A stretch of 6,457 nt of DNA from a virus. Its lineage: Duplodnaviria; Heunggongvirae; Uroviricota; Caudoviricetes. The DNA lies in the IMG/VR virus record IMGVR_UViG_2563366830_000009; one strand, 5' to 3'. A program made the position numbers and the translations under genes. Of the stretch, positions 1 to 6,457 are shown one piece after another. Below the pieces are notes generated by a model, which was given only the letters and a program-made list of their open reading frames with translations, was not told the DNA's origin and searched no databases. Position 1 is the first letter of the stretch; each line of letters opens with the position of its first letter.

Positions 1-224
1 CCGCCGCCCGGGCGGGAATCCGCAGAACGCCCACCGCAGCGTGAGCCGTCAGCAGCAGTGTCGCTGTCGTGCTGACAACGACCGGCAAAGGCCTGAGTTG
101 ACGCTACCAGAGACAACAAAACGAACAGTGCAGCAAATGCTTTTTTCATTGTGACATTTCCATCTATAAGCCACCTCAATGTGGCGTCAATGAGTGTAGC
201 ACTGACTTTTGTTTCGTCCATAAA
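1..224. repeat. Direct repeat copy 1 (about 224 bp, 2 mismatches to copy 2 at 1176-1399); may extend left of the window
   Basis: Read directly: positions 1-224 align with 1176-1399 at offset 1175, differing only at 185 (c vs t) and 215 (t vs c). Contains the perfect palindrome CCCGCCCGGGCGGG (3-16). Confidence 0.9.
163..190 (-). promoter_or_regulatory. Sigma70-like promoter inside repeat copy 1 (-35 TTGACG, -10 TATAGA, 16-nt spacer)
   Basis: Minus-strand reading shows a -35 hexamer at 190-185 and -10 at 168-163. The single repeat mismatch at 185 falls in the -35 (TTGACG here, consensus TTGACA in copy 2). Confidence 0.4.
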
Positions 225-230
225 AAACTA

Positions 231-1056: not shown

Positions 1057-1098
1057 CTTTAATCTCCGGTAAGTTACAGGTATAAAATAAAAACAGGT

Positions 1099-1113
1099 TT
1101 ACCTTTAAGGTAA
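1099..1113. promoter_or_regulatory. Operator-like perfect palindrome TTACCTTTAAGGTAA (site 1), overlapping a -10-like hexamer of a minus-strand promoter
   Basis: Minus strand reads TTGCAG(1141-1136)-17 nt-TACTAT(1118-1113) running into the palindrome. The identical 16-mer TTACCTTTAAGGTAAT recurs at 3921-3936. Confidence 0.55.
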
Positions 1114-1156
1114 TAGTACGCTATTCACCCCCGGTCTGCAATCTGTACAGAATTAT

Positions 1157-1324
1157 TTAAAGGCACATCCCTGTGCCGCCGCCCGGGCGGGAATCCGCAG
1201 AACGCCCACCGCAGCGTGAGCCGTCAGCAGCAGTGTCGCTGTCGTGCTGACAACGACCGGCAAAGGCCTGAGTTGACGCTACCAGAGACAACAAAACGAA
1301 CAGTGCAGCAAATGCTTTTTTCAT
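1157..1324 (-). CDS. Short ORF (55 aa) with a canonical Sec-type signal peptide (MKKAFAALFVLLSLVASTQAFA) and a Cys/Gly/Arg-rich tail; could be a small secreted peptide, a truncated gene 5' end, or a non-coding leader
   Basis: ATG at 1324-1322, stop at 1159-1157. The N-terminus has textbook n/h/c signal-peptide organisation, but the C-terminal 30 codons are read through GC-rich palindromes and there is no SD. An identical N-terminal coding segment in copy 1 (from ATG 149-147) runs off the left edge. Confidence 0.25.
   Translation of the reverse strand: MKKAFAALFVLLSLVASTQAFAGRCQHDSDTAADGSRCGGRSADSRPGGGTGMCL
1162..1177. other. Junction hairpin GGCACATCCCTGTGCC (6-bp stem, 4-nt loop) followed on the minus strand by a T/A-rich tract; module-boundary motif, possible weak terminator
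   Basis: The 24-bp motif aGGCACATCCnTGTGCCGCCGC recurs at 2315-2338 immediately after the 244-aa gene stop. Flanking promoter regions (ATAATT...TTGCAG) are also homologous. Confidence 0.4.
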
Positions 1325-1399
1325 TGTGACATTTCCATCTATAAGCCACCTCAATGTGGTGTCAATGAGTGTAGCACTGACTTTTGTTTCGTCCACAAA
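1176..1399. repeat. Direct repeat copy 2, about 99 percent identical to 1-224
   Basis: Same alignment as copy 1. Left boundary falls inside the hairpin motif GGCACATCCCTGTGCC (1162-1177); right boundary is the A-run before the terminator at 1403-1417. Confidence 0.9.
1338..1365 (-). promoter_or_regulatory. Sigma70-like promoter inside repeat copy 2 (-35 TTGACA consensus, 16-nt spacer, -10 TATAGA)
   Basis: Minus strand reads cactcaTTGACAccacattgaggtggctTATAGAtggaaatgtcacaATG. Perfect -35 and 4/6 -10; the ATG follows about 15 nt later with no clear Shine-Dalgarno. Confidence 0.45.
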
Positions 1400-1425
1400 A
1401 AAGCCCGCAGCGCGGGCTTACTTTT
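1397..1425. terminator. Rho-independent, bidirectional-type terminator (GCCCGC-AGC-GCGGGC flanked by an A-run and a T-rich run), terminating the minus-strand 182-aa gene
   Basis: Perfect 6-bp GC stem at 1403-1408/1412-1417. On the minus strand it is followed by TTTTTT (complement of 1397-1402) directly after the stop codon at 1418-1420. Confidence 0.7.
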
Positions 1426-1966
1426 CTTCAGGTTTGTTGTCTTCAGATTTCTTCTTGATGCTTGGTTTTTGTCTAAGAACGAAAATACCAGCCACTGCAA
1501 CAACTGTACCGATCACTGTGCCAGCTAGAACTTCATGACCTGTTAAACCTAATAATGTTGCACAAGCTACTGTAAAAATAGTTGCACTCAGGCCAAACCA
1601 CTGCCCACGTTTATCTCTATTAATAGCCCCGTCAAGTGCCTTTTCCTCCATTTTCTGGCGGTGAGCAAACTCCTTCTCCGTCAGCTGGAAGATGCGTTCG
1701 GGGGCATCAGGTAAAATATCCTGATACCCGCGAAGCAGATAGGGGGGAGGAAGCGGACCCTGAAACGCATGGTGAGCGACAACTATCTCCTGAATTTCAG
1801 GGCGATCAAGAACTCTTGTGAAGGCATCTGGGTGTTGAATGATCTCGTTACTTAGCCCTTCCTCAACTTCCTCGAACTCAGTTTCTTCGTTATCACTTGG
1901 TTGCCCAATAGATTTTTGCATATTTGTCGAAGGACATTCCTTTAGCTTCTGGTTTTCCTCTTGCAT
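1418..1966 (-). CDS. DUF2335 (COG5346)-like membrane protein, 182 aa, acidic N-terminal region and two C-terminal TM helices
   Basis: Motif PLPPPYLLRGYQDILPDAPERIFQLTEKEFAHRQ...RGQWFG then two hydrophobic helices matches my recollection of the DUF2335 family (unverified). The true start may be the internal Met at 1921; the long ORF overlaps the upstream gene by 74 nt. Confidence 0.55.
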   Translation of the reverse strand: MQEENQKLKECPSTNMQKSIGQPSDNEETEFEEVEEGLSNEIIQHPDAFTRVLDRPEIQEIVVAHHAFQGPLPPPYLLRGYQDILPDAPERIFQLTEKEFAHRQKMEEKALDGAINRDKRGQWFGLSATIFTVACATLLGLTGHEVLAGTVIGTVVAVAGIFVLRQKPSIKKKSEDNKPEEK

Positions 1967-2219
1967 TTGAGTTTTTCCCTGTCACTATTGCCCATTTTCC
2001 GCCAGCAGGCGCTGCAATTTTTTTTCCGTTCTTTACTATATATTCAGCATAAACACGATTTTCTGACCGTCTGAGATCGTCTCCGACCATATTCATGTCT
2101 CTTGATATAACTTTGACGACAGAGTCTCGGTTTAAAGCCTTGGCATAGTTGGAGCCAGGAACGATACCCAAAGGGGTGCCAGACTCTATAGCCAGCTCCT
2201 TGACATATCTTCTGCTCAT
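1893..2219 (-). CDS. Hypothetical protein, about 108 aa (MSRRYVKELAIESG...), first gene of the second module
   Basis: The track ORF begins with TTG at 2234, but the ATG at 2219-2217 is preceded by GAGGT (4-nt spacing). Operator-like site 2 lies 22 nt upstream. Overlaps or couples with the DUF2335-like gene. Confidence 0.5.
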   Translation of the reverse strand: MSRRYVKELAIESGTPLGIVPGSNYAKALNRDSVVKVISRDMNMVGDDLRRSENRVYAEYIVKNGKKIAAPAGGKWAIVTGKNSNARGKPEAKGMSFDKYAKIYWATK

Positions 2220-2240
2220 ATGAACCTCAACCAATCGACT

Positions 2241-2255
2241 TTACCAATCGGGTAA
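2241..2255. promoter_or_regulatory. Operator-like site 2, TTACCAATCGGGTAA (same TTACC-N5-GGTAA half-sites), overlapping a -10-like TAAAAT on the minus strand
   Basis: Same half-site and spacing as sites 1, 3 and 4. The surrounding region is homologous to the region upstream of the 108-aa gene (shared ATAATT...ACA...TTGCAG). Confidence 0.45.
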
Positions 2256-2316
2256 TTTTAAACATGAGTATAATGCTTTTAACTGCAACGAGTGTAAACA
2301 ATTATTGATAATTGTA

Positions 2317-2332
2317 GGCACATCCATGTGCC
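2317..2332. other. Junction hairpin GGCACATCCATGTGCC immediately after the ORF6N gene stop; second copy of the module-boundary motif, possible weak terminator
   Basis: 22 of 24 bases match 1160-1183. The stop codon of the 244-aa gene is at 2341-2343. Confidence 0.4.
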
Positions 2333-2340
2333 GCCGCTCG

Positions 2341-3060
2341 TCAGAAGAACCCTGCCTTGTCGTTGATGTACTCCGCGTGGGTCTGGATATCACGCAGGCA
2401 TTTGCTCACACCGACGATGTAGCAGAACATGGTGGTCAGCTCCGCCGCCGCGCCCGATACGTCATGCCCGTCTTCCTGTAACTGGTTCAGCAAATTCATC
2501 AGCAGTGAGTTCTCCGTCAGGCCGAGAACACCAGACGGCGAGTGAATCAGGCTGCGGTAGCCGGGCTTCAGTGGGGCGCTGTATTCTTTTTTGTCTTCCA
2601 GCTTGATCGCCTCCATAATGGCGGGCATGAATTTTTCAATTACCTGAGTGGCCTTTGATAAATCAGCTCCACCTGAGAGACGAACATCTCCACTGACATT
2701 TGCGGGTTTTCTGTCGAAGTAGCAATCTTCCAGTTTTTCGAAGACCTCCCACGCTTTTTCAGTCTCAAGAATTTTCGCATGTCGTGCTGCACCGCGAGCG
2801 GTCCATAAGAAAAGATGACTTACTTTTGGTGCAATATTAAGCAAACCTCTTTGAGAGGACTCGTTCTTAAATGCTCGTAATTCTTCGCCTATCAGCTTGA
2901 AACAATGTTTTCCCTCAATGAATCGATCTGCATTTCGTTGATAGTTTTGACGAATCAGTTTGGGTTCTGTGTCATACAAATCAGCAAGCATTTCTGTAGT
3001 CATTACAGGGATGTTGCAATGAGTTGTTATCGGCAACTTATCAATAGCTATATTACGCAT
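2341..3060 (-). CDS. ORF6N-domain (KilA-N superfamily) protein, often annotated as phage antirepressor-like; N-terminal ORF6N domain plus an uncharacterised C-terminal domain of about 130 aa
   Basis: N-terminal region (VMTTEMLADLYDTEPKLIRQNYQRNADRFIEGKHCFKLIGEE...LWTARGAARHAKILETEKA) fits the ORF6N consensus as I recall it (VMLD-DLA-LY...RN-RFP-F-L-EE). The track start is 3075, but GGAGG with 8-nt spacing favours ATG at 3060-3058. That start overlaps the upstream gene stop (3053-3055) in the sequence ATGCGTAA. Confidence 0.6.
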   Translation of the reverse strand: MRNIAIDKLPITTHCNIPVMTTEMLADLYDTEPKLIRQNYQRNADRFIEGKHCFKLIGEELRAFKNESSQRGLLNIAPKVSHLFLWTARGAARHAKILETEKAWEVFEKLEDCYFDRKPANVSGDVRLSGGADLSKATQVIEKFMPAIMEAIKLEDKKEYSAPLKPGYRSLIHSPSGVLGLTENSLLMNLLNQLQEDGHDVSGAAAELTTMFCYIVGVSKCLRDIQTHAEYINDKAGFF

Positions 3061-3559
3061 TTTCATTGCCTCCATCTTTCACGACGAAATAGCAATTATC
3101 TTTATAATCTAACTGGATGAACTTTATGTTTTCAGGGAGTTTTACAGAAAGAGTTTTTGCACAAGCAAAACCAAAATCTGCGCCAGAAGCATCCATATAC
3201 CTTAATAATTGTTTTAATGCTGAAGGAGAAAAAGTATCTACCTTCACCTCAACAGGGTAACCATCTTTTGTTTTTAGGTCTGGTTGACCTGGTCCACCAA
3301 GTATTTCAGCGTTAAGGTATTTTGCTATTTCTGGATAAGCGTTGTATTCAGAGCGTAGTTTTGCCTTGTTATCGACTGCTAGTTGCATAAGATGATCAAA
3401 CAAATTGGTATCTAAATCTGCCCCTTCATCCCACATTCTATTTCTACAGCTAATCAATTCACTGACCAGTGGTGCACTTTCTTGCCTTAGCATAAGAAGG
3501 AGTGGAGAATTAGAAATTAACCAATACAGATCGTCGTTTGAGATTTTTTGGCCTGGCAT
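3053..3559 (-). CDS. Hypothetical protein (168 aa), AT-rich, translationally coupled to the ORF6N gene
   Basis: RBS GAGGT about 7 nt before ATG at 3559. Overlaps the downstream gene by 8 nt. No recognisable domain by eye. Confidence 0.5.
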   Translation of the reverse strand: MPGQKISNDDLYWLISNSPLLLMLRQESAPLVSELISCRNRMWDEGADLDTNLFDHLMQLAVDNKAKLRSEYNAYPEIAKYLNAEILGGPGQPDLKTKDGYPVEVKVDTFSPSALKQLLRYMDASGADFGFACAKTLSVKLPENIKFIQLDYKDNCYFVVKDGGNENA

Positions 3560-3835
3560 AGCGATACCTCTACTAGTAAGTTACCTACCACCGCAACGCC
3601 AATTGCTGGTGGTGAACTGGACAAGGTTGGCGTACCGGCCTAGTAGGTACCGGCGCACCTTTCGGTGCCCCTGCCCAGCCCACCATAATTCGGATATGAC
3701 TGTGCTATACGCATAAAAAAACCACGTCTGGCGTGGTATGCGCCTACTAGTAATCCGGGACGCCAATCCCGGCACTGGATTTTGCCAGTGCCCGATTACT
3801 ATGGCACAAGAGGAGTGCGATGTAAATTTACCGAA
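3560..3835 (-). ncRNA. Candidate structured RNA: either an sRNA of about 120 nt (roughly 3835 to 3714) or a long attenuator-type 5' leader of the 168-aa/ORF6N operon
   Basis: Multiple nested stem-loops are visible: an outer stem AGTAATC/GATTACT (3748-3754 with 3794-3800) enclosing hairpins CCGGGA-CGCCAA-TCCCGG and CACTGG-ATTTTG-CCAGTG; GCACC-TTTC-GGTGC; ACCACC...GGTGGT. A promoter with overlapping operator sits upstream and the terminator is at 3714-3737. No ATG-initiated ORF in this minus-strand stretch. Confidence 0.3.
3714..3737 (-). terminator. Intrinsic terminator-like hairpin on the minus strand (ACCACG-CCAGA-CGTGGT followed by U6-7) inside the long region upstream of the 168-aa gene
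   Basis: Plus strand shows aaaaaaACCACGtctggCGTGGT; on the minus strand the 6-bp stem is followed by a T-run. It lies about 155 nt upstream of the 168-aa start codon. Confidence 0.5.
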
Positions 3836-3871
3836 AAGGTAATGATAAACGCTAAGAAATATTAAAATCAA
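3828..3871 (-). promoter_or_regulatory. Minus-strand promoter (-35 TTGATT 3871-3866, 18-nt spacer, -10 TATCAT 3847-3842) overlapping operator-like site 3, TTACCGAAAAGGTAA (3828-3842)
   Basis: Minus strand reads TTGATTttaatatttcttagcgttTATCATTACCTTTTCGGTAA. The arrangement of a -10 hexamer running into the TTACC half-site is the same as at site 1 (TACTATTACC). Confidence 0.4.
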
Positions 3872-3920: not shown

Positions 3921-3935
3921 TTACCTTTAAGGTAA
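3921..3935. promoter_or_regulatory. Operator-like site 4, TTACCTTTAAGGTAA, identical to site 1 and 21 nt upstream of the 175-aa gene start
   Basis: Perfect palindrome; the 16-mer TTACCTTTAAGGTAAT matches 1099-1114. It is followed by tgtGAGGAaaagcaATG (RBS and start at 3956). Confidence 0.5.
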
Positions 3936-3955
3936 TGTTATTGTGAGGAAAAGCA

Positions 3956-4483
3956 ATGGAAGTTTTCTTAATCATCGTCGGCATCGTGATTATTAATTTT
4001 GTTTTTTTATTTATTGCAAAAAAACAAAAAAGTAACGATATGCATGTTTCTACAACTGATGATCTTACCTTTGTAGAGCATGCACTGAATGTATCAGGAT
4101 ATAAACTCACTCCATACGGAGCTGGTGTATCACTCATGTCTTTAAGTAACGGTTTTTCAAAAGAAGAAACATTTTCACATATAGCTTTGATGGCTCTTTC
4201 TCAACACGCCAAAGTCGCAGGTAGTGACGCAATTGAGCTTAGTAAAGTTAGCATTCGTGCGATGTCGATAGCTGAAAACTTAACTAAATTATTCAGGAAA
4301 GGTCTTATTCGATCAGAAATATATAAAAATGATTTGAATGCTATCATGGCTGTCAGCACAATTAATGAAAACCAAGAGGATTGGATTTCCATAGTTCTGG
4401 AAAGCAATAGCACATCTAACAAGGATACTATTGCTTTGCCGATAAGTGCAGAAGCTTCTTTAGAAGCCATAAACAGCCATTGA
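3956..4483 (+). CDS. Hypothetical single-pass membrane protein (175 aa), AT-rich; N-terminal TM helix then a soluble domain
   Basis: RBS GAGGA 8 nt before ATG. The N-terminus MEVFLIIVGIVIINFVFLFIAKKQK is a clear TM segment with a positive patch after it. Only plus-strand gene in the window; convergent with the 618-aa gene. Confidence 0.5.
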   Translation: MEVFLIIVGIVIINFVFLFIAKKQKSNDMHVSTTDDLTFVEHALNVSGYKLTPYGAGVSLMSLSNGFSKEETFSHIALMALSQHAKVAGSDAIELSKVSIRAMSIAENLTKLFRKGLIRSEIYKNDLNAIMAVSTINENQEDWISIVLESNSTSNKDTIALPISAEASLEAINSH

Positions 4484-4504: not shown

Positions 4505-6361
4505 TTAACGCATCACCGGATCCACCTGGTTTATTAGTGGCGCAATCCAGAACAGGTTATTGCCGGGGATCGTAGTTCGTACATTATGTACAATACGATC
4601 ACCGACATCACCATTCAACACACCAGAGGTCACATCAATGATGCTGTCCGCAAGACTGAATGACGGGCCGAACAAAGAACTCACAAAGCCACGGCTGGCA
4701 TAGCGTGACTGTGTGCCGGTGCCAAATAAAGCCCCCAGCCCAACAGCACCACCAGTAGCCTTTTCAGCCATGTTGTTATATTCCATCAATGGCCCAAGAA
4801 TACCGGATCTATCTATACCCTCAAGCACCAGCTTCTCTGGTGACCAGTCAACATCCTTCCCTTTCGATGCTTCTTTAAGCGCATAGACCAGTGAGCCAAG
4901 AGCAATCTGAAATGCAGTGCCATAATAAAACTGCGCAGTTCCTTCCTGTAACCCACCAAGTAGCGCACGGTTGTATGAAGCCGTTGTGAATGATTTAAAC
5001 TGAAATATCGTTCGCCCCCATGACGTACTCGCCCATAAAGGTGTGTCACCAATACCGGGGGTGATGATAGTGTTATTAACGTCTTTCAGAACCGCTGACT
5101 GGAATACTCCGGCAACGTACTGATCGTCCCATTTATCAAAGTTACCAATGTGCCATCCATCAATTACCTCACCATGTTTCTCGAACTCACTGCGAATACG
5201 CGCAGCCATATTGTCGTTGATACCGAGTTTTGCCAGGCGGCGTGCAGGAAATGCACCGGACAAAATACCGTCTGAAATAACCATTCCGTTCATGGATTTG
5301 TTTATGTCATTAAAGCGATCCATGAGTGTCAGCTTGCCGAAGGCATCAGTAATTCGCTCCATTCCGGCTTCGACTGCTGTTGTCCTGGAAGAGCTGTCAA
5401 CAAGATCACCAATTGCACGAGAGCGTGAATGCAGTACAGTTTCCAGTCCGATACCCATCTTCAACATCTCTTCTTTGCTGGCCTTAAATGCCGGTGATTG
5501 GGATATCTGAGAAGCATAGCCTTTCATGGTGTTACGGAAACCATTAACCATAACCCCTCTGGCCAGATCTGGAATAGCTGATACTGTCATTCCACCGAGT
5601 TTGGTCGTGAAGTTCACATCCCGCAGAAAAGCGCCAGCACGAACAAAAAACGAAGACGGATCATCAGGCATCCCATATGTACCAACAAGACGATCGCGTA
5701 ATGCTGTTATGTCTCTGAGATCATTTGCTCTTGATTTTGAAAGTCTGGACTGTTCTTTCCGTAATTCCTTTTCGTACTTTCGCATTAATGAATCGAGTTT
5801 ACCCTGAGGAACAACTTCACCATTGCTCTCATAACGTGCTTTCAGATTTGCCACACTTTCGTCATATTTCGCCTTTATTTTTTCAGGCACTTCCCGTAAC
5901 AGACTGTCATATTCGTCCTCAATTAATTGCAGACGCTCAGTCATAGTTCGTTTGCCAAATGTTCTCGTCAACTCAATTTCTGCTGCCGCTTCACGGATAT
6001 GACGTTGCAGCACGTAATTCACATCACTTTCAAGATAATCCCTGATAAGACTATCAGGAACATTTAATGTTCTTTCTTTCGTACTACCTGCGGCTTTTAC
6101 AGAAAATACGCTGACAAAATCCTGTGGAACCTTAGCACCAGTAATTTTATTAATTACGATATCTGCTGCAATTTCAGCATCCTCAGGAACCAGTGTTTTA
6201 TTTCCTCTCGACCACCAGTCAACCAAAATACGTCGAAATTTATCGCGTTCACTGATTATTTTTCCAACTTTATATATGCGTGGGAAATAGCTTGCCTGGC
6301 CTAATGCTTTCAGTTCTTCATCTGGCGGCAATAAACCAAGCTTTTGCATTTCAACTTTCAC
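4505..6361 (-). CDS. Large hypothetical protein (618 aa as tracked), charged/coiled-coil-like middle and Gly-rich hydrophobic C-terminal segment; possibly a phage virion or injection/tape-measure-like protein; 5' end abuts an IS element
   Basis: Long uninterrupted ORF. The tracked start at 6361 is GTG; the first ATG is at 6349-6347, with weak SD for both. The reading frame stays open upstream into the IS end at 6378 and to the window edge. No Walker A or HExxH motif seen. The family guess is weak. Confidence 0.6.
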   Translation of the reverse strand: MKVEMQKLGLLPPDEELKALGQASYFPRIYKVGKIISERDKFRRILVDWWSRGNKTLVPEDAEIAADIVINKITGAKVPQDFVSVFSVKAAGSTKERTLNVPDSLIRDYLESDVNYVLQRHIREAAAEIELTRTFGKRTMTERLQLIEDEYDSLLREVPEKIKAKYDESVANLKARYESNGEVVPQGKLDSLMRKYEKELRKEQSRLSKSRANDLRDITALRDRLVGTYGMPDDPSSFFVRAGAFLRDVNFTTKLGGMTVSAIPDLARGVMVNGFRNTMKGYASQISQSPAFKASKEEMLKMGIGLETVLHSRSRAIGDLVDSSSRTTAVEAGMERITDAFGKLTLMDRFNDINKSMNGMVISDGILSGAFPARRLAKLGINDNMAARIRSEFEKHGEVIDGWHIGNFDKWDDQYVAGVFQSAVLKDVNNTIITPGIGDTPLWASTSWGRTIFQFKSFTTASYNRALLGGLQEGTAQFYYGTAFQIALGSLVYALKEASKGKDVDWSPEKLVLEGIDRSGILGPLMEYNNMAEKATGGAVGLGALFGTGTQSRYASRGFVSSLFGPSFSLADSIIDVTSGVLNGDVGDRIVHNVRTTIPGNNLFWIAPLINQVDPVMR

Positions 6362-6377
6362 CCGATTTAATACAGTT

Positions 6378-6457
6378 TGAACCGCCCCGGGAATCCTGGA
6401 GACTAAACTTCCTGAGAAAGAGGTAAACAGGATGACTAAAAATACTCGTTTTTCCCC
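6378..6457 (+). mobile_element. Left end of an IS3-family insertion sequence (IS629/IS1203-like): terminal inverted repeat starting TGAACCGCCCCGGG plus the first codons of orfA (MTKNTRFS from ATG 6432)
   Basis: The sequence TGAACCGCCCCGGGAATCCTGGAGACTAAACTTCCTGAGAAAGAGGTAAACAGGATGACTAAAAATACTCG matches my memory of the IS629-type left end and OrfA N-terminus (MTKNTRFSPEVRQRA...). The element continues beyond the window. Confidence 0.65.

Follow-up and report, generated by a model that had tools for sequence, protein, structure and literature searches.

A conserved hairpin at the 3′ end of an antirepressor module borders a variable cassette slot in epsilon15-like prophages

Results

Organisation of the antirepressor locus

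The window (the whole 6,457-nt stretch of IMG/VR record IMGVR_UViG_2563366830_000009 that was analysed) carries on its minus strand an antirepressor operon, followed by two cassettes in tandem and by two copies of a 227-bp module with a small signal-peptide ORF (Table 1). At the leader of the antirepressor operon, Rfam models RF01695 (76.7 bits, gathering score 45) and RF01394 (68.1 bits) were matched, together with RF03163 at 45.1 bits, just under its gathering score of 46.7. A C4 RNA and its a1/b1 target thus precede the antirepressor gene, which makes the context of the motif studied here a P1/P7-type immI operon. The operator palindrome at the immI promoter region is of the same type as the cassette-promoter operators, and in the epsilon15 record ATTACCTTACAGGTAAT is annotated as a repressor binding site.

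Table 1. Features of the window and their positions
Feature	Position	Strand	Details
227-bp module, copy 1 (normal one)	1–227	−	small ORF leaves the window's left end
Cassette 2	231–1159	−	AT-rich leader, TTGCAG-17-TACTAT, operator TTACCTTTAAGGTAAT 1099–1114, 108-aa ORF, YafO-like 170-aa ORF
Motif copy 1	1160–1183	−	hairpin GGCACA-GGGA-UGUGCC (RNA sense, 1177–1162), GC run ahead of hairpin
Crossover microhomology CCGCCGCCCG (= CGGGCGGCGG on the minus strand)	1176–1185	.	novel joint of the tandem array
227-bp module, copy 2	1176–1402	−	small signal-peptide ORF 1324–1157, 55 aa; phrog_14503 membrane associated protein, moron
Canonical bidirectional intrinsic terminator, end of cassette 1	1401–1419	.	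227-bp module begins within its T-run
Cassette 1	1418–2298	−	promoter-like site 2298–2270, operator palindrome TTACCCGATTGGTAA 2255–2241, 113-aa ORF, DUF2335 membrane protein
Motif copy 2	2315–2338	−	hairpin GGCACA-UGGA-UGUGCC (2332–2317)
AntC, shared C-terminal domain coding region	2341–2601	−	last 86 codons and stop of ORF 2341–3075
ORF6N N-terminal domain of antirepressor	2602–3075	−	PF10543, 9.9e-19; phrog_1760 anti-repressor
immI leader RNAs, P1/P7-type	3605–3804	−	c4-a1b1 target, isrK-like element, C4 antisense RNA; upstream of antirepressor operon
Operator palindrome TTACCTTTAAGGTAAT at immI promoter region	3921–3936	.	variant 3828–3843

In the usual layout of such loci, a C4-RNA immI operon and its Ant gene are followed by the hairpin, an operator-controlled promoter, a cassette of one or two genes, the 227-bp small secreted-protein gene and a terminator. 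The order C4 region, Ant, motif, cassette, 227-bp module, reversed motif and second Ant was recovered in most of 86 IMG/VR loci, in TL-2011b and in a Klebsiella phage, and the carriers are epsilon15/phiV10/TL-2011b-like (Uetakevirus-type) prophages. At least 10 cassette families, including YafO-like, DUF2335, DUF4760 and unknown ones, fill the slot between these flanks, and each has a promoter-like leader of its own that carries a TTACC-N5/6-GGT(A/G)A palindrome. An identical cassette 1 occupies the same slot in loci L003, L005, L040, L046 and L066, while an identical cassette 2 lies directly after Ant and hairpin in at least 12 IMG/VR loci. With variable self-contained units at a fixed position between conserved flanks, the slot is a phage moron or accessory-gene hotspot. 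The label of a defence hotspot is unsupported, as PADLOC, run on 10 proteins taken from both window cassettes and the principal other families, returned no defence-system model. The 227-bp module has a promoter-like site of its own, read by eye (TTGACA at 1365–1360, TATAGA at 1343–1338) and unflagged by the promoter scan, and the small ORF of its copy 1 ends ...GGGGIR* at position 11988 of L001.

A GC-rich motif, GGCACATCC[C/A]TGTGCCGCCGC, occurs at 1162–1182 and 2317–2337, against a chance expectation of 0. Both sites are exact plus-strand matches to the pattern GGCACATCCNTGTGCCGCCGC, which had no further match in the window at up to 3 mismatches and none in 200 dinucleotide shuffles, and a repeat search paired 1154–1185 with 2309–2340 at 84%. 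The repeated hairpin proposed in an earlier sequence-only reading is therefore real. That reading also placed copy 2 correctly, immediately past the stop codon of the ORF6N gene (ORF 2341–3075, minus strand). It was right, too, that on the minus strand each copy is followed by an AT-rich tract and then by a promoter-like region, in which the palindrome TTACC-N5/6-GGTAA lies (1099–1114; 2241–2255). The hairpin of copy 2 starts 8 nt past the antirepressor stop codon, its canonical position. Copy 1 is preceded by the small-ORF module and not by an antirepressor stop codon; it provides the final codons of the small ORF (GTGMCL*), and the stretch from its hairpin leftwards to 1090 corresponds in relatives to the canonical 3′ flank of Ant. 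The large direct repeat noted earlier as 224 bp was recovered with a length of 227 bp (the two module copies of Table 1, 99% identity); it does begin inside the hairpin at 1160–1183, where the last 2 stem nucleotides overlap, but not inside the one at 2315–2338. A third copy, GCGGCGGCACAGGGACGTGCA, is degraded and located 62 nt beyond the left end of the window, on the other strand (11919–11939 of L001), after the stop of a second antirepressor gene.

The motif is the 3′-terminal piece of the antirepressor module

Among 89 IMG/VR matches to the motif, 86 stood directly after ...HAEYINDKAGFF*, the end of the antirepressor. Conversely, a scan that used only the coding end as its anchor, with a degenerate DNA pattern for the AntC end run on viral contigs, found the hairpin after 160 of the 168 AntC ends sampled. 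A related-locus search of genome contigs with the 86-aa AntC gave pattern matches and no confirmed locus, and this pattern and tblastn against phages took its place. The motif is thus the 3′-terminal piece of a conserved antirepressor module, consisting of stop codon, short GC run, 6-bp stem and A-N-GGA loop. Together with AntC (~280 bp) it forms a homology arm of ~0.3 kb to the left of the slot, which is 93–98% identical throughout among copies of the E. coli lineage. With the second ant gene, which lies beyond the window, AntC also makes up an inverted repeat that stops at ...GTGC of the stem.

Being GC-rich, imperfectly palindromic and intergenic at a 3′ end, the motif has the appearance of a REP-type or other dispersed chromosomal element. 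However, it was detected in just 466 of 5,426 complete E. coli genomes, at 1–3 places in each, and among the matches listed all were at or adjoining a BRO-N, ORF6N or Ant gene except the weakest (a partial match in hypF, E=6). Moreover, L001 carries three copies within 30 kb, each of them at an ant or cassette joint. On this survey we reject REP-like ubiquity and consider an origin as a dispersed element extremely improbable: the motif is confined to the 3′ side of the antirepressor and is neither free-standing nor a REP-type repeat. Its description as a feature of module boundaries in general did not hold either, since it was found only after the antirepressor stop codon. A further scan of genome contigs with a free 4-nt loop was uninformative, with ~70 chance matches estimated (17 fixed bases, 596 Gb); the matches listed were scattered over unrelated taxa (Microbulbifer, Streptomyces and various metagenome-assembled genomes) and included no E. 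coli-type phage locus.

Structure and conservation of the stem-loop

The hairpin has a stem of 6 bp (4 of them G-C), a loop of 4 nt and a folding energy of −9.1 to −10.1 kcal/mol, which is not unusual relative to shuffled sequences (z = −0.3 to −1.5). Across the aligned copies, 90.6% of cells were paired versus at most 58% when the partner strand was slid. One of the 6 pairs covaries (A-U in 47, G-C in 16, G-U in 1) around an invariant loop G-A; this covariation amounts essentially to one evolutionary event, between the E. coli and Klebsiella lineages. Neither motif copy matched an Rfam family (E≤1), and complementarity between motif and C4 RNA, assessed by eye, extended over 5 nt only.

Such a pattern raises the question whether the hairpin has any function of its own or has been conserved as a passenger at the end of a recently spread AntC segment. 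The near-identity of the whole arm makes conservation within the E. coli lineage little informative, and covariation within lineages is absent, every stem variant of the E. coli lineage being uncompensated. Klebsiella phages, however, have an AntC that is 53% identical in protein and differ in the neighbouring 8-nt flanks, yet they retain the hairpin, with one compensatory pair in the stem and the A-N-GGA loop unchanged. We therefore regard the passenger explanation as unlikely. The loop GGA was retained in 200 of 201 copies from three lineages while the stem varies.

The stem is degraded in those copies that have a canonical terminator after them, with G.A in all and A.C in many. This would fit a role that is required only where no terminator follows, although the degraded stems of these convergent copies could reflect a founder effect instead of relaxed selection.

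Terminator, 3′-end element or protein-binding site

The sequence-only reading had suggested an inter-module terminator. A true Rho-independent terminator closing the antirepressor operon would be well placed at the operon end, directly past the stop codon, and the element does offer a GC-rich stem of 6 bp with a stable tetraloop, followed in ~75% of copies by UUUAAA(A)UAAU and hence by three proximal U. However, the tails 3′ of the stem in the window (UUUAAAUA and UACAAUUA) lack a U-tract (at least 5 U in 8), the second copy continuing into UACAAUUAUC, and other contexts read GGGCAAAA or UUAAAAAGC. A terminator consensus scan flagged neither motif copy while it found those at 1401–1419 and at 3737–3721 (isrK element), and the energy is just −9 to −10 kcal/mol. 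Moreover, in several contexts, namely the convergent E. coli one and some Klebsiella loci, a canonical terminator lies within 0–30 nt past the hairpin, which would make a first one redundant. A classical intrinsic terminator was rejected on these grounds, and it appears improbable that the hairpin serves as a genuine Rho-independent terminator of the antirepressor operon.

A GC-rich stem-loop with an AU-rich stretch next to it is also an arrangement that blocks 3′-to-5′ exonucleases after cleavage downstream. On the ant transcript, the hairpin may be a stem-loop that forms or protects the 3′ end; as a leaky stop, or as a barrier to exonucleases, it would keep the C4-controlled antirepressor operon insulated from the promoter that follows. 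Overall, we consider it likely that the motif is a 3′-end element belonging to a conserved antirepressor 3′ module, that it borders a cassette slot and that its second occurrence in the window stems from an accidental tandem joint.

A plain barrier hairpin leaves the invariant loop sequence unexplained, and an A-N-GGA loop that stays constant on a changing stem is better explained by protein binding. High-affinity hairpins of CsrA/RsmA follow the SELEX consensus RUACARGGAUGU (PMC2896534). Copy 1 (GCACAGGGAUGU) fits this consensus at 11 of 12 positions and copy 2 (GCACAUGGAUGU) at 10 of 12, with GGA in the loop of both. The hairpin could hence be a candidate binding site for host CsrA or another loop-specific RNA-binding protein, and the retention of the loop GGA across three lineages, though the stem varies, is in keeping with that. 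The likeness is nevertheless one of sequence only; the site lies at the 3′ end of the gene and not at the Shine-Dalgarno sequence, no obvious second GGA was seen by inspection within ~60 nt, the usual bridging distance offering no good partner, and the second copy of the window reads UGGA, which costs one extra mismatch. We accordingly give such binding little credence, and equally little to the more specific proposal that the hairpin, most plausibly as a candidate high-affinity CsrA site (ACA-GGGA-UGU), lets the host Csr circuit tune antirepressor output. If it were true, the site would tie antirepressor expression to host physiology, with the carbon and stress circuit of Csr acting through antirepressor output on prophage induction in a widespread family of podovirus prophages of E. 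coli and Klebsiella.

Cassette exchange and the tandem joint

Cassettes move between diverged phage backbones, with homology switching at the hairpin and at the operator. Homology breaks just past the hairpin, which is the last sequence to be conserved: the stem is continued by at least 6 unrelated sequences in phages of the E. coli type and by at least 6 in those of the Klebsiella type, and the homology of many relatives to the window begins at 2318. A second joint of this kind lies at the operator, and cassettes that are 100% identical were found beside C4 regions merely 80–93% identical to that of the window.

The hairpin appears twice in the window because two cassettes are present in tandem. 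At the joint between them lies the 10-nt CGGGCGGCGG, which occurs both in the GC run on the 5′ side of the hairpin, within the Ant 3′ flank, and in the codons that close the small gene, where the 227-bp module ends; the extra joint arose by a rare crossover within this microhomology. Of 5,426 complete E. coli genomes a single one contained the joint, and none of 86 IMG/VR loci did; a small-ORF tail fused to the hairpin was seen in 1 of ~97. Full-length matches to window positions 1090–1270 and 1160–1204 came from the source strain only, and a 45-nt junction query revealed no tandem joint with other leaders outside that strain. Single-cassette prophages that resemble the donor and carry the same ORF6N Ant do exist (H6, H7–H12). 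The crossover set a second hairpin and promoter leader behind the small gene, and the reciprocal type of event, a deletion between the same short repeats, would have given rise to phages without a cassette, such as phiV10. For the phiV10 type the direction rests on parsimony, and either a deletion or an empty site inherited from an ancestor could lie behind it.

More generally, three junction types link the Ant stop codon to the small-ORF tail, and the GC run was the crossover point of one tandem duplication (in this window) and at least two deletions. This might indicate that the motif is a dedicated recombination core, similar to attC or linker sequences, at which a site- or structure-specific enzyme inserts, excises and stacks cassettes. 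In line with this, each cassette unit of the window is flanked on both ends by GGGCGGCGG, the hairpin adjoins this core, and the one stacking and the at least two excision-like events map there. Against it stand the near-uniqueness of the tandem joint, crossover registers that vary between events, and the Klebsiella lineage, in which the microhomology core is missing while hairpin and slot are retained. In addition, no recombinase gene was present in or beside the slot across 30 kb of annotation, and homologous arms of 0.23–0.3 kb explain how cassettes are exchanged. A dedicated core is thus very unlikely, and an integron attC or other site-specific cassette site was rejected for lack of a recombinase in those 30 kb, the one-genome joint and the varying registers.

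The long conserved arms, AntC and the 227-bp module, account for the exchange of cassettes. Given this, and since crossovers in the GC run are rare, we infer that the hairpin is not a dedicated module-shuffling or recombinase site and that its role in recombination would be passive, as the end of a homology arm beside a slippery GC run. The earlier suggestion of a recombination junction therefore stands in the comparative sense, given the homology break at the hairpin and the crossovers in the GC run, and fails as a dedicated site of shuffling.

Discussion

The analysis gives the cassette slot a precise anatomy: the antirepressor C-terminus and hairpin as its left arm, a repressor-type operator, the variable cassette, and the small secreted-protein gene as its right arm. 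About 9% of complete E. coli genomes carry this arrangement, as do Klebsiella prophages, and its defined arms make it simple to harvest cassettes systematically and to ask after their roles. The hairpin, with its invariant GGA loop, is a small and probably conserved RNA structure. The loci compared here also show both outcomes of recombination at a 10-nt microhomology, which can either stack or delete phage cassettes.

The immI operon resembles that of P1 and P7 (c4-icd-ant) in its C4 antisense RNA, its a1b1 target upstream of an ORF and its antirepressor gene, and it resembles immI of P22 in lying between the virion/injection genes and the tailspike gene. It differs from both P1 and P22 in having two convergent immI modules whose common C-terminal domain forms an inverted repeat and, between these modules, a slot for variable cassettes together with the gene for a small secreted protein. 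To our knowledge, a 3′ hairpin of this kind has not been described for P1 or P22.

The moron concept is said to go back to Juhala/Hendrix et al. in 2000. Like morons, the cassettes are self-contained, with their own promoter and in some cases their own terminator, and lie between conserved phage genes. Unlike morons, they occupy a fixed, recurrent position between two defined arms instead of a random insertion point, and their promoters bear a phage repressor-type operator, so that they are probably not expressed constitutively in the lysogen.

As for the hairpin itself, it resembles stabiliser stem-loops and REP elements in its GC-rich stem-loop directly past the stop codon with an AU-rich stretch next to it. 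It departs from the REP family in being single-locus and phage-specific and not dispersed, and a stabilising role is putative. It shares with CsrA/RsmA hairpins (PMC2896534) the GGA in the loop, the short ACA/UGU stem and, in copy 1, 11 of 12 consensus positions; unlike those sites, the candidate lies in a 3′ untranslated position and lacks a partner at the ribosome-binding site. Similarly, the window recalls integron attC arrays, as promoter-proximal variable cassettes are parted by an imperfect palindrome and two of them are stacked with the same core bracketing each. However, it has no integrase, the 16-nt hairpin lacks attC box organisation, the stacking is a one-off and each cassette has a promoter of its own.

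In the mosaic model derived from mycobacteriophages, illegitimate recombination makes new joints and homologous recombination in flanking conserved sequence spreads them (PMC1475703). The locus resembles such mosaic phages in its identical cassettes in diverged backbones and in a new joint on 10 nt of homology. The finding is thus ordinary mosaic-phage biology seen in detail, and current views of phage mosaicism stand.

A GC-rich motif flanking one gene module

Two exact matches to GGCACATCCNTGTGCCGCCGC were found in the window, with no third at up to 3 mismatches and none in 200 shuffles, in line with the sequence-only reading that a hairpin motif recurs here. Copy 2 directly follows the stop of the ORF6N gene, and 3′ of both copies, on the minus strand, an AT-rich stretch is followed by a promoter-like region with a TTACC-N5/6-GGTAA palindrome, which bears out the A/T-rich tract and homologous promoter region described for both. 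The large repeat said to begin inside the hairpin does so at copy 1, where it overlaps the last two stem bases, and measures 227 bp (99% identity), not 224 bp.

A scan of IMG/VR with the pattern GGCACA-N4-TGTGCCGCCGC revealed 89 loci, in 86 of which the motif lies directly 3′ of the stop codon (...HAEYINDKAGFF, stop) of AntC, the C-terminal domain shared by antirepressor (Ant) genes. A rescan designed to avoid the bias of a motif query, using a degenerate pattern for the last 13 AntC codons only, placed the hairpin within ~10 nt 3′ of the AntC end in 160 of 168 cases. A 32-nt motif query matched 466 of 5,426 complete E. coli genomes, at 1–3 places each; among the matches listed these adjoin or sit at a BRO-N, ORF6N or Ant gene, except for the weakest, which covers the motif only in part and falls in hypF (E=6). 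A dispersed REP-type element, the case named as refuting the sequence-only reading, is therefore excluded. Instead of marking module boundaries in general, as previously suggested, the motif forms the 3′ flank of a single gene module.

Prophage setting

The window matches the chromosome of E. coli MS 196-1 at 100% identity. The surrounding prophage is of the epsilon15/phiV10/TL-2011b-like podovirus type, and the region is bounded by an internal virion protein gene on one side and the endosialidase tailspike gene on the other. An IS3-family element cuts the former off at ~6370 (leaving a truncated remnant), a second IS3-family insertion lies in a holin gene, and the prophage is very probably defective.

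A C4 leader, a 168-aa ORF and the ORF6N antirepressor gene form a P1/P7-type immI operon. The 168-aa ORF takes the place of icd between the C4 RNA and ant, whose start it overlaps by 23 nt; neither it nor a divergent 175-aa ORF, which has a hydrophobic segment near its N-terminus and separates the immI promoter from the virion gene, matched Pfam. PGAP labels part of the C4 RNA a pseudogene ('Rha family phage regulatory protein', frameshifted), apparently misannotating an RNA gene. Just left of the window, on the opposite strand, lies a second immI module (C4 RNA and BRO-N antirepressor), and the two P1/P7-type leaders are convergent, each preceding a different antirepressor. For this group of phages, experiments on phage vB_EcoP_ZX5 support an antirepressor function (PMC9782041).

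The BRO-N and ORF6N antirepressors are nearly identical over their last ~80 codons, and a degraded third motif copy lies 3′ of the BRO-N gene. Together the ends of the two genes make up an inverted repeat (278/299 nt identical) that ends at ...GTGC of the hairpin. This ~0.3-kb repeat flanks a 2.4-kb cassette segment. Since the cassettes here are co-directional with the virion-gene-proximal ant, and in TL-2011b and three related loci (L052, L054, L077) with the tailspike-proximal ant, the segment exists in both orientations; it may be invertible by homologous recombination. The AntC domain has no Pfam model. Stand-alone homologues (38–42% identity, tblastn) are epsilon15 gp19 and related 85–86-aa genes adjoining the tailspike gene, which an 85-aa gene of the prophage resembles by eye.

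Coordinates of features in the window, in the ~30-kb locus around it (L001) and in related loci
Feature	Location	Strand
Exact motif matches	window 1162-1182; 2317-2337	plus
227-bp direct repeat	window 1-227 = 1176-1402	
Shared 10-mer CGGGCGGCGG	window 1176-1185	
TTACC-N5/6-GGTAA palindromes near motif copies	window 1099-1114; 2241-2255	
Other TTACC-N5/6-GGTAA palindromes	window 3828-3843; 3921-3936; L001 10563-10579; 10941-10957	
Small signal-peptide ORF	window 1157-1324; L001 11988-12149	minus; minus
ORF6N antirepressor gene	window 2341-3075	minus
Inverted repeat (C-terminal ~80 codons and hairpin)	L001 11640-11939; window 2317-2615	plus; minus
168-aa ORF	window 3053-3559	minus
immI leader RNAs (c4-a1b1 target, isrK-like element, C4 antisense RNA; Rfam), ORF6N	window 3804-3605	minus
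immI leader RNAs (same elements), BRO-N	L001 10960-11180	plus
'Rha family' pseudogene label	window 3605-3701	
175-aa ORF	window 3956-4483	plus
Internal virion protein gene remnant	window 4505-6361	
IS3-family insertions	window 6370-6457; L001 5561-6789; 18432-19645	
85-aa gp19-like gene	L001 10653-10910	
epsilon15 gp19	L274 2504-2764	
GGCCGC-N4-GCGGCC terminator region	L001 11948-11985; L092 3953-3993; L272 2764-2795; L274 2776-2800; L273 3781-3805	

An accessory slot for exchangeable cassettes

Mapping the window features onto 86 IMG/VR loci revealed a single recurring gene order, shared by TL-2011b: C4 region, Ant (AntC), hairpin, leader with putative operator palindrome, a cassette of 1–2 genes, the 227-bp module (small signal-peptide ORF), a bidirectional terminator and, often, a reversed degraded hairpin with a second, convergent ant gene. 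The slot accommodates 10 or more cassette families that are unrelated to one another, including two YafO-like pairs, DUF4760, DUF2335 and several without a family; 10 proteins from the two window cassettes and the main other families matched no PADLOC model.

TTACC-N5/6-GGTAA palindromes are present at the immI promoters, the gp19-like gene promoter and every cassette promoter. In the epsilon15 record ATTACCTTACAGGTAAT is labelled a repressor binding site, so the cassette and immI palindromes are most likely phage repressor operators. If so, cassette expression would be shut off in the lysogen and come on along with that of the antirepressor, behaviour uncommon among morons.

Two copies are present of the small signal-peptide ORF (phrog_14503; 'membrane associated protein', moron), which has an apparent promoter of its own (TTGACA-16-TATAGA) and whose conservation extends to Klebsiella phages. 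In Uetakevirus-type phages of E. coli, Enterobacter and Salmonella a perfect palindrome, GTGACATGTCAC, immediately flanks the bidirectional terminator (GGCCGC-N4-GCGGCC); a Klebsiella locus keeps the terminator, with only a GTGAC half-site beside it.

Cassettes that are 100% identical occur beside C4 regions only 80–93% identical to that of the window, at least six unrelated continuations start immediately 3′ of the stem, and the same YafO cassette is found under two distinct leaders whose sequences meet again precisely at the operator. The visible mosaic joints are thus the hairpin and the operator. Cassettes would be exchanged by homologous recombination in long arms, namely AntC with the hairpin (~0.3 kb) and the 227-bp module, which adequately explains the exchange and is consistent with the general view of phage mosaicism (PMC1475703). 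The recombination junction proposed earlier stands in part, insofar as the motif ends a homology arm and crossovers in microhomology recur in its GC run, and falls as a dedicated site.

Origin of the tandem array

A single cassette is present in 86/86 IMG/VR loci. The window holds two, arranged as DUF2335, 227-bp module, hairpin with leader and YafO cassette, and second 227-bp module. Comparing its novel joint (...CCCGGGCGGCGG/CACAGGGATGTGCC) with the usual small-ORF end (CCCGGGCGGCGG/TGGCATTCGTTAA) and the usual Ant flank (TGACGGGCGGCGG/CACAGGG) places the crossover within the 10-mer common to the latter two, CGGGCGGCGG. The small ORF is here fused to the hairpin, which encodes its altered C-terminus (...PGGGTGMCL-stop replacing ...PGGGGIR-stop). 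Among the 5,426 complete E. coli genomes, two queries spanning the junction (181 nt and 45 nt) matched at full length only in MS 196-1, their parts being present in 462–487 genomes, and the motif duplication is a one-off. Prophages that share the ORF6N operon but hold a single cassette, either YafO or DUF2335, exist (H6, H7–H12) and are plausible parents of the array; a crossover in the 10-mer would join two such units in tandem, duplicating the hairpin.

The reciprocal type of product, with the Ant stop codon joined directly to the small-ORF tail and terminator and both hairpin and cassette absent, occurs in phiV10 and in 8/168 sampled AntC ends. Its three junction variants, one in a different register (GGCGGTGGCA), indicate at least two independent deletions. 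In the Klebsiella lineage slot and hairpin are retained and the shared 10-mer is absent; the microhomology is therefore a chance feature of the E. coli lineage rather than a designed site.

The hairpin as a candidate RNA structure

Within the E. coli lineage the hairpin 5′ arm is invariant and every 3′-arm variant is uncompensated, these copies being too closely related for stem variants to be informative. In Klebsiella-type phages, whose AntC shares 53% protein identity and whose layout of Ant, cassette and small ORF is the same, GGCGC-AGGGAA-GCGCC stands in this position, and a third lineage carries GGTGC-AGGGAC-GCGCC. Across 64 distinct contexts 90.6% of cells pair, versus at most 58% with a slid partner, the loop A-N-GGA is retained, and one pair covaries (A-U in 47, G-C in 16, G-U in 1; essentially one event). 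Pairing and covariation offer positive but thin evidence for a functional structure.

The hairpin had been put forward as an inter-module terminator. As an intrinsic terminator in the classical sense it is not convincing: a terminator scan found those at 1401-1419 and in the isrK element and did not list the hairpin, the stem energy is only –9 to –10 kcal/mol, the tails after the two copies read UUUAAAUA and UACAAUUA, and in several contexts a canonical terminator lies 0–30 nt 3′ of the hairpin. Copies with such a terminator downstream have a degraded stem (G.A in all, A.C in many), suggesting that the stem is important mainly where no terminator comes after. We infer that the hairpin is a 3′-end-forming or protecting stem-loop, which would insulate the antirepressor operon from the next promoter.

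Relation to known systems

The loop also invites comparison with CsrA-binding sites, whose SELEX consensus RUACARGGAUGU places GGA in the loop of a short stem (PMC2896534). The hairpin (ACA-GGGA-UGU) agrees at 11/12 consensus positions, likewise has a short stem with GGA in its loop and keeps GGA in 200/201 copies. It differs, however, in its 3′-end position without a partner site at the ribosome-binding site, which is unusual for CsrA, and we regard a CsrA site as improbable. No description of the hairpin or slot was found in the literature searched. The feature, itself well delimited, belongs to known kinds: the mosaic module boundary, the moron slot and the 3′ stem-loop.
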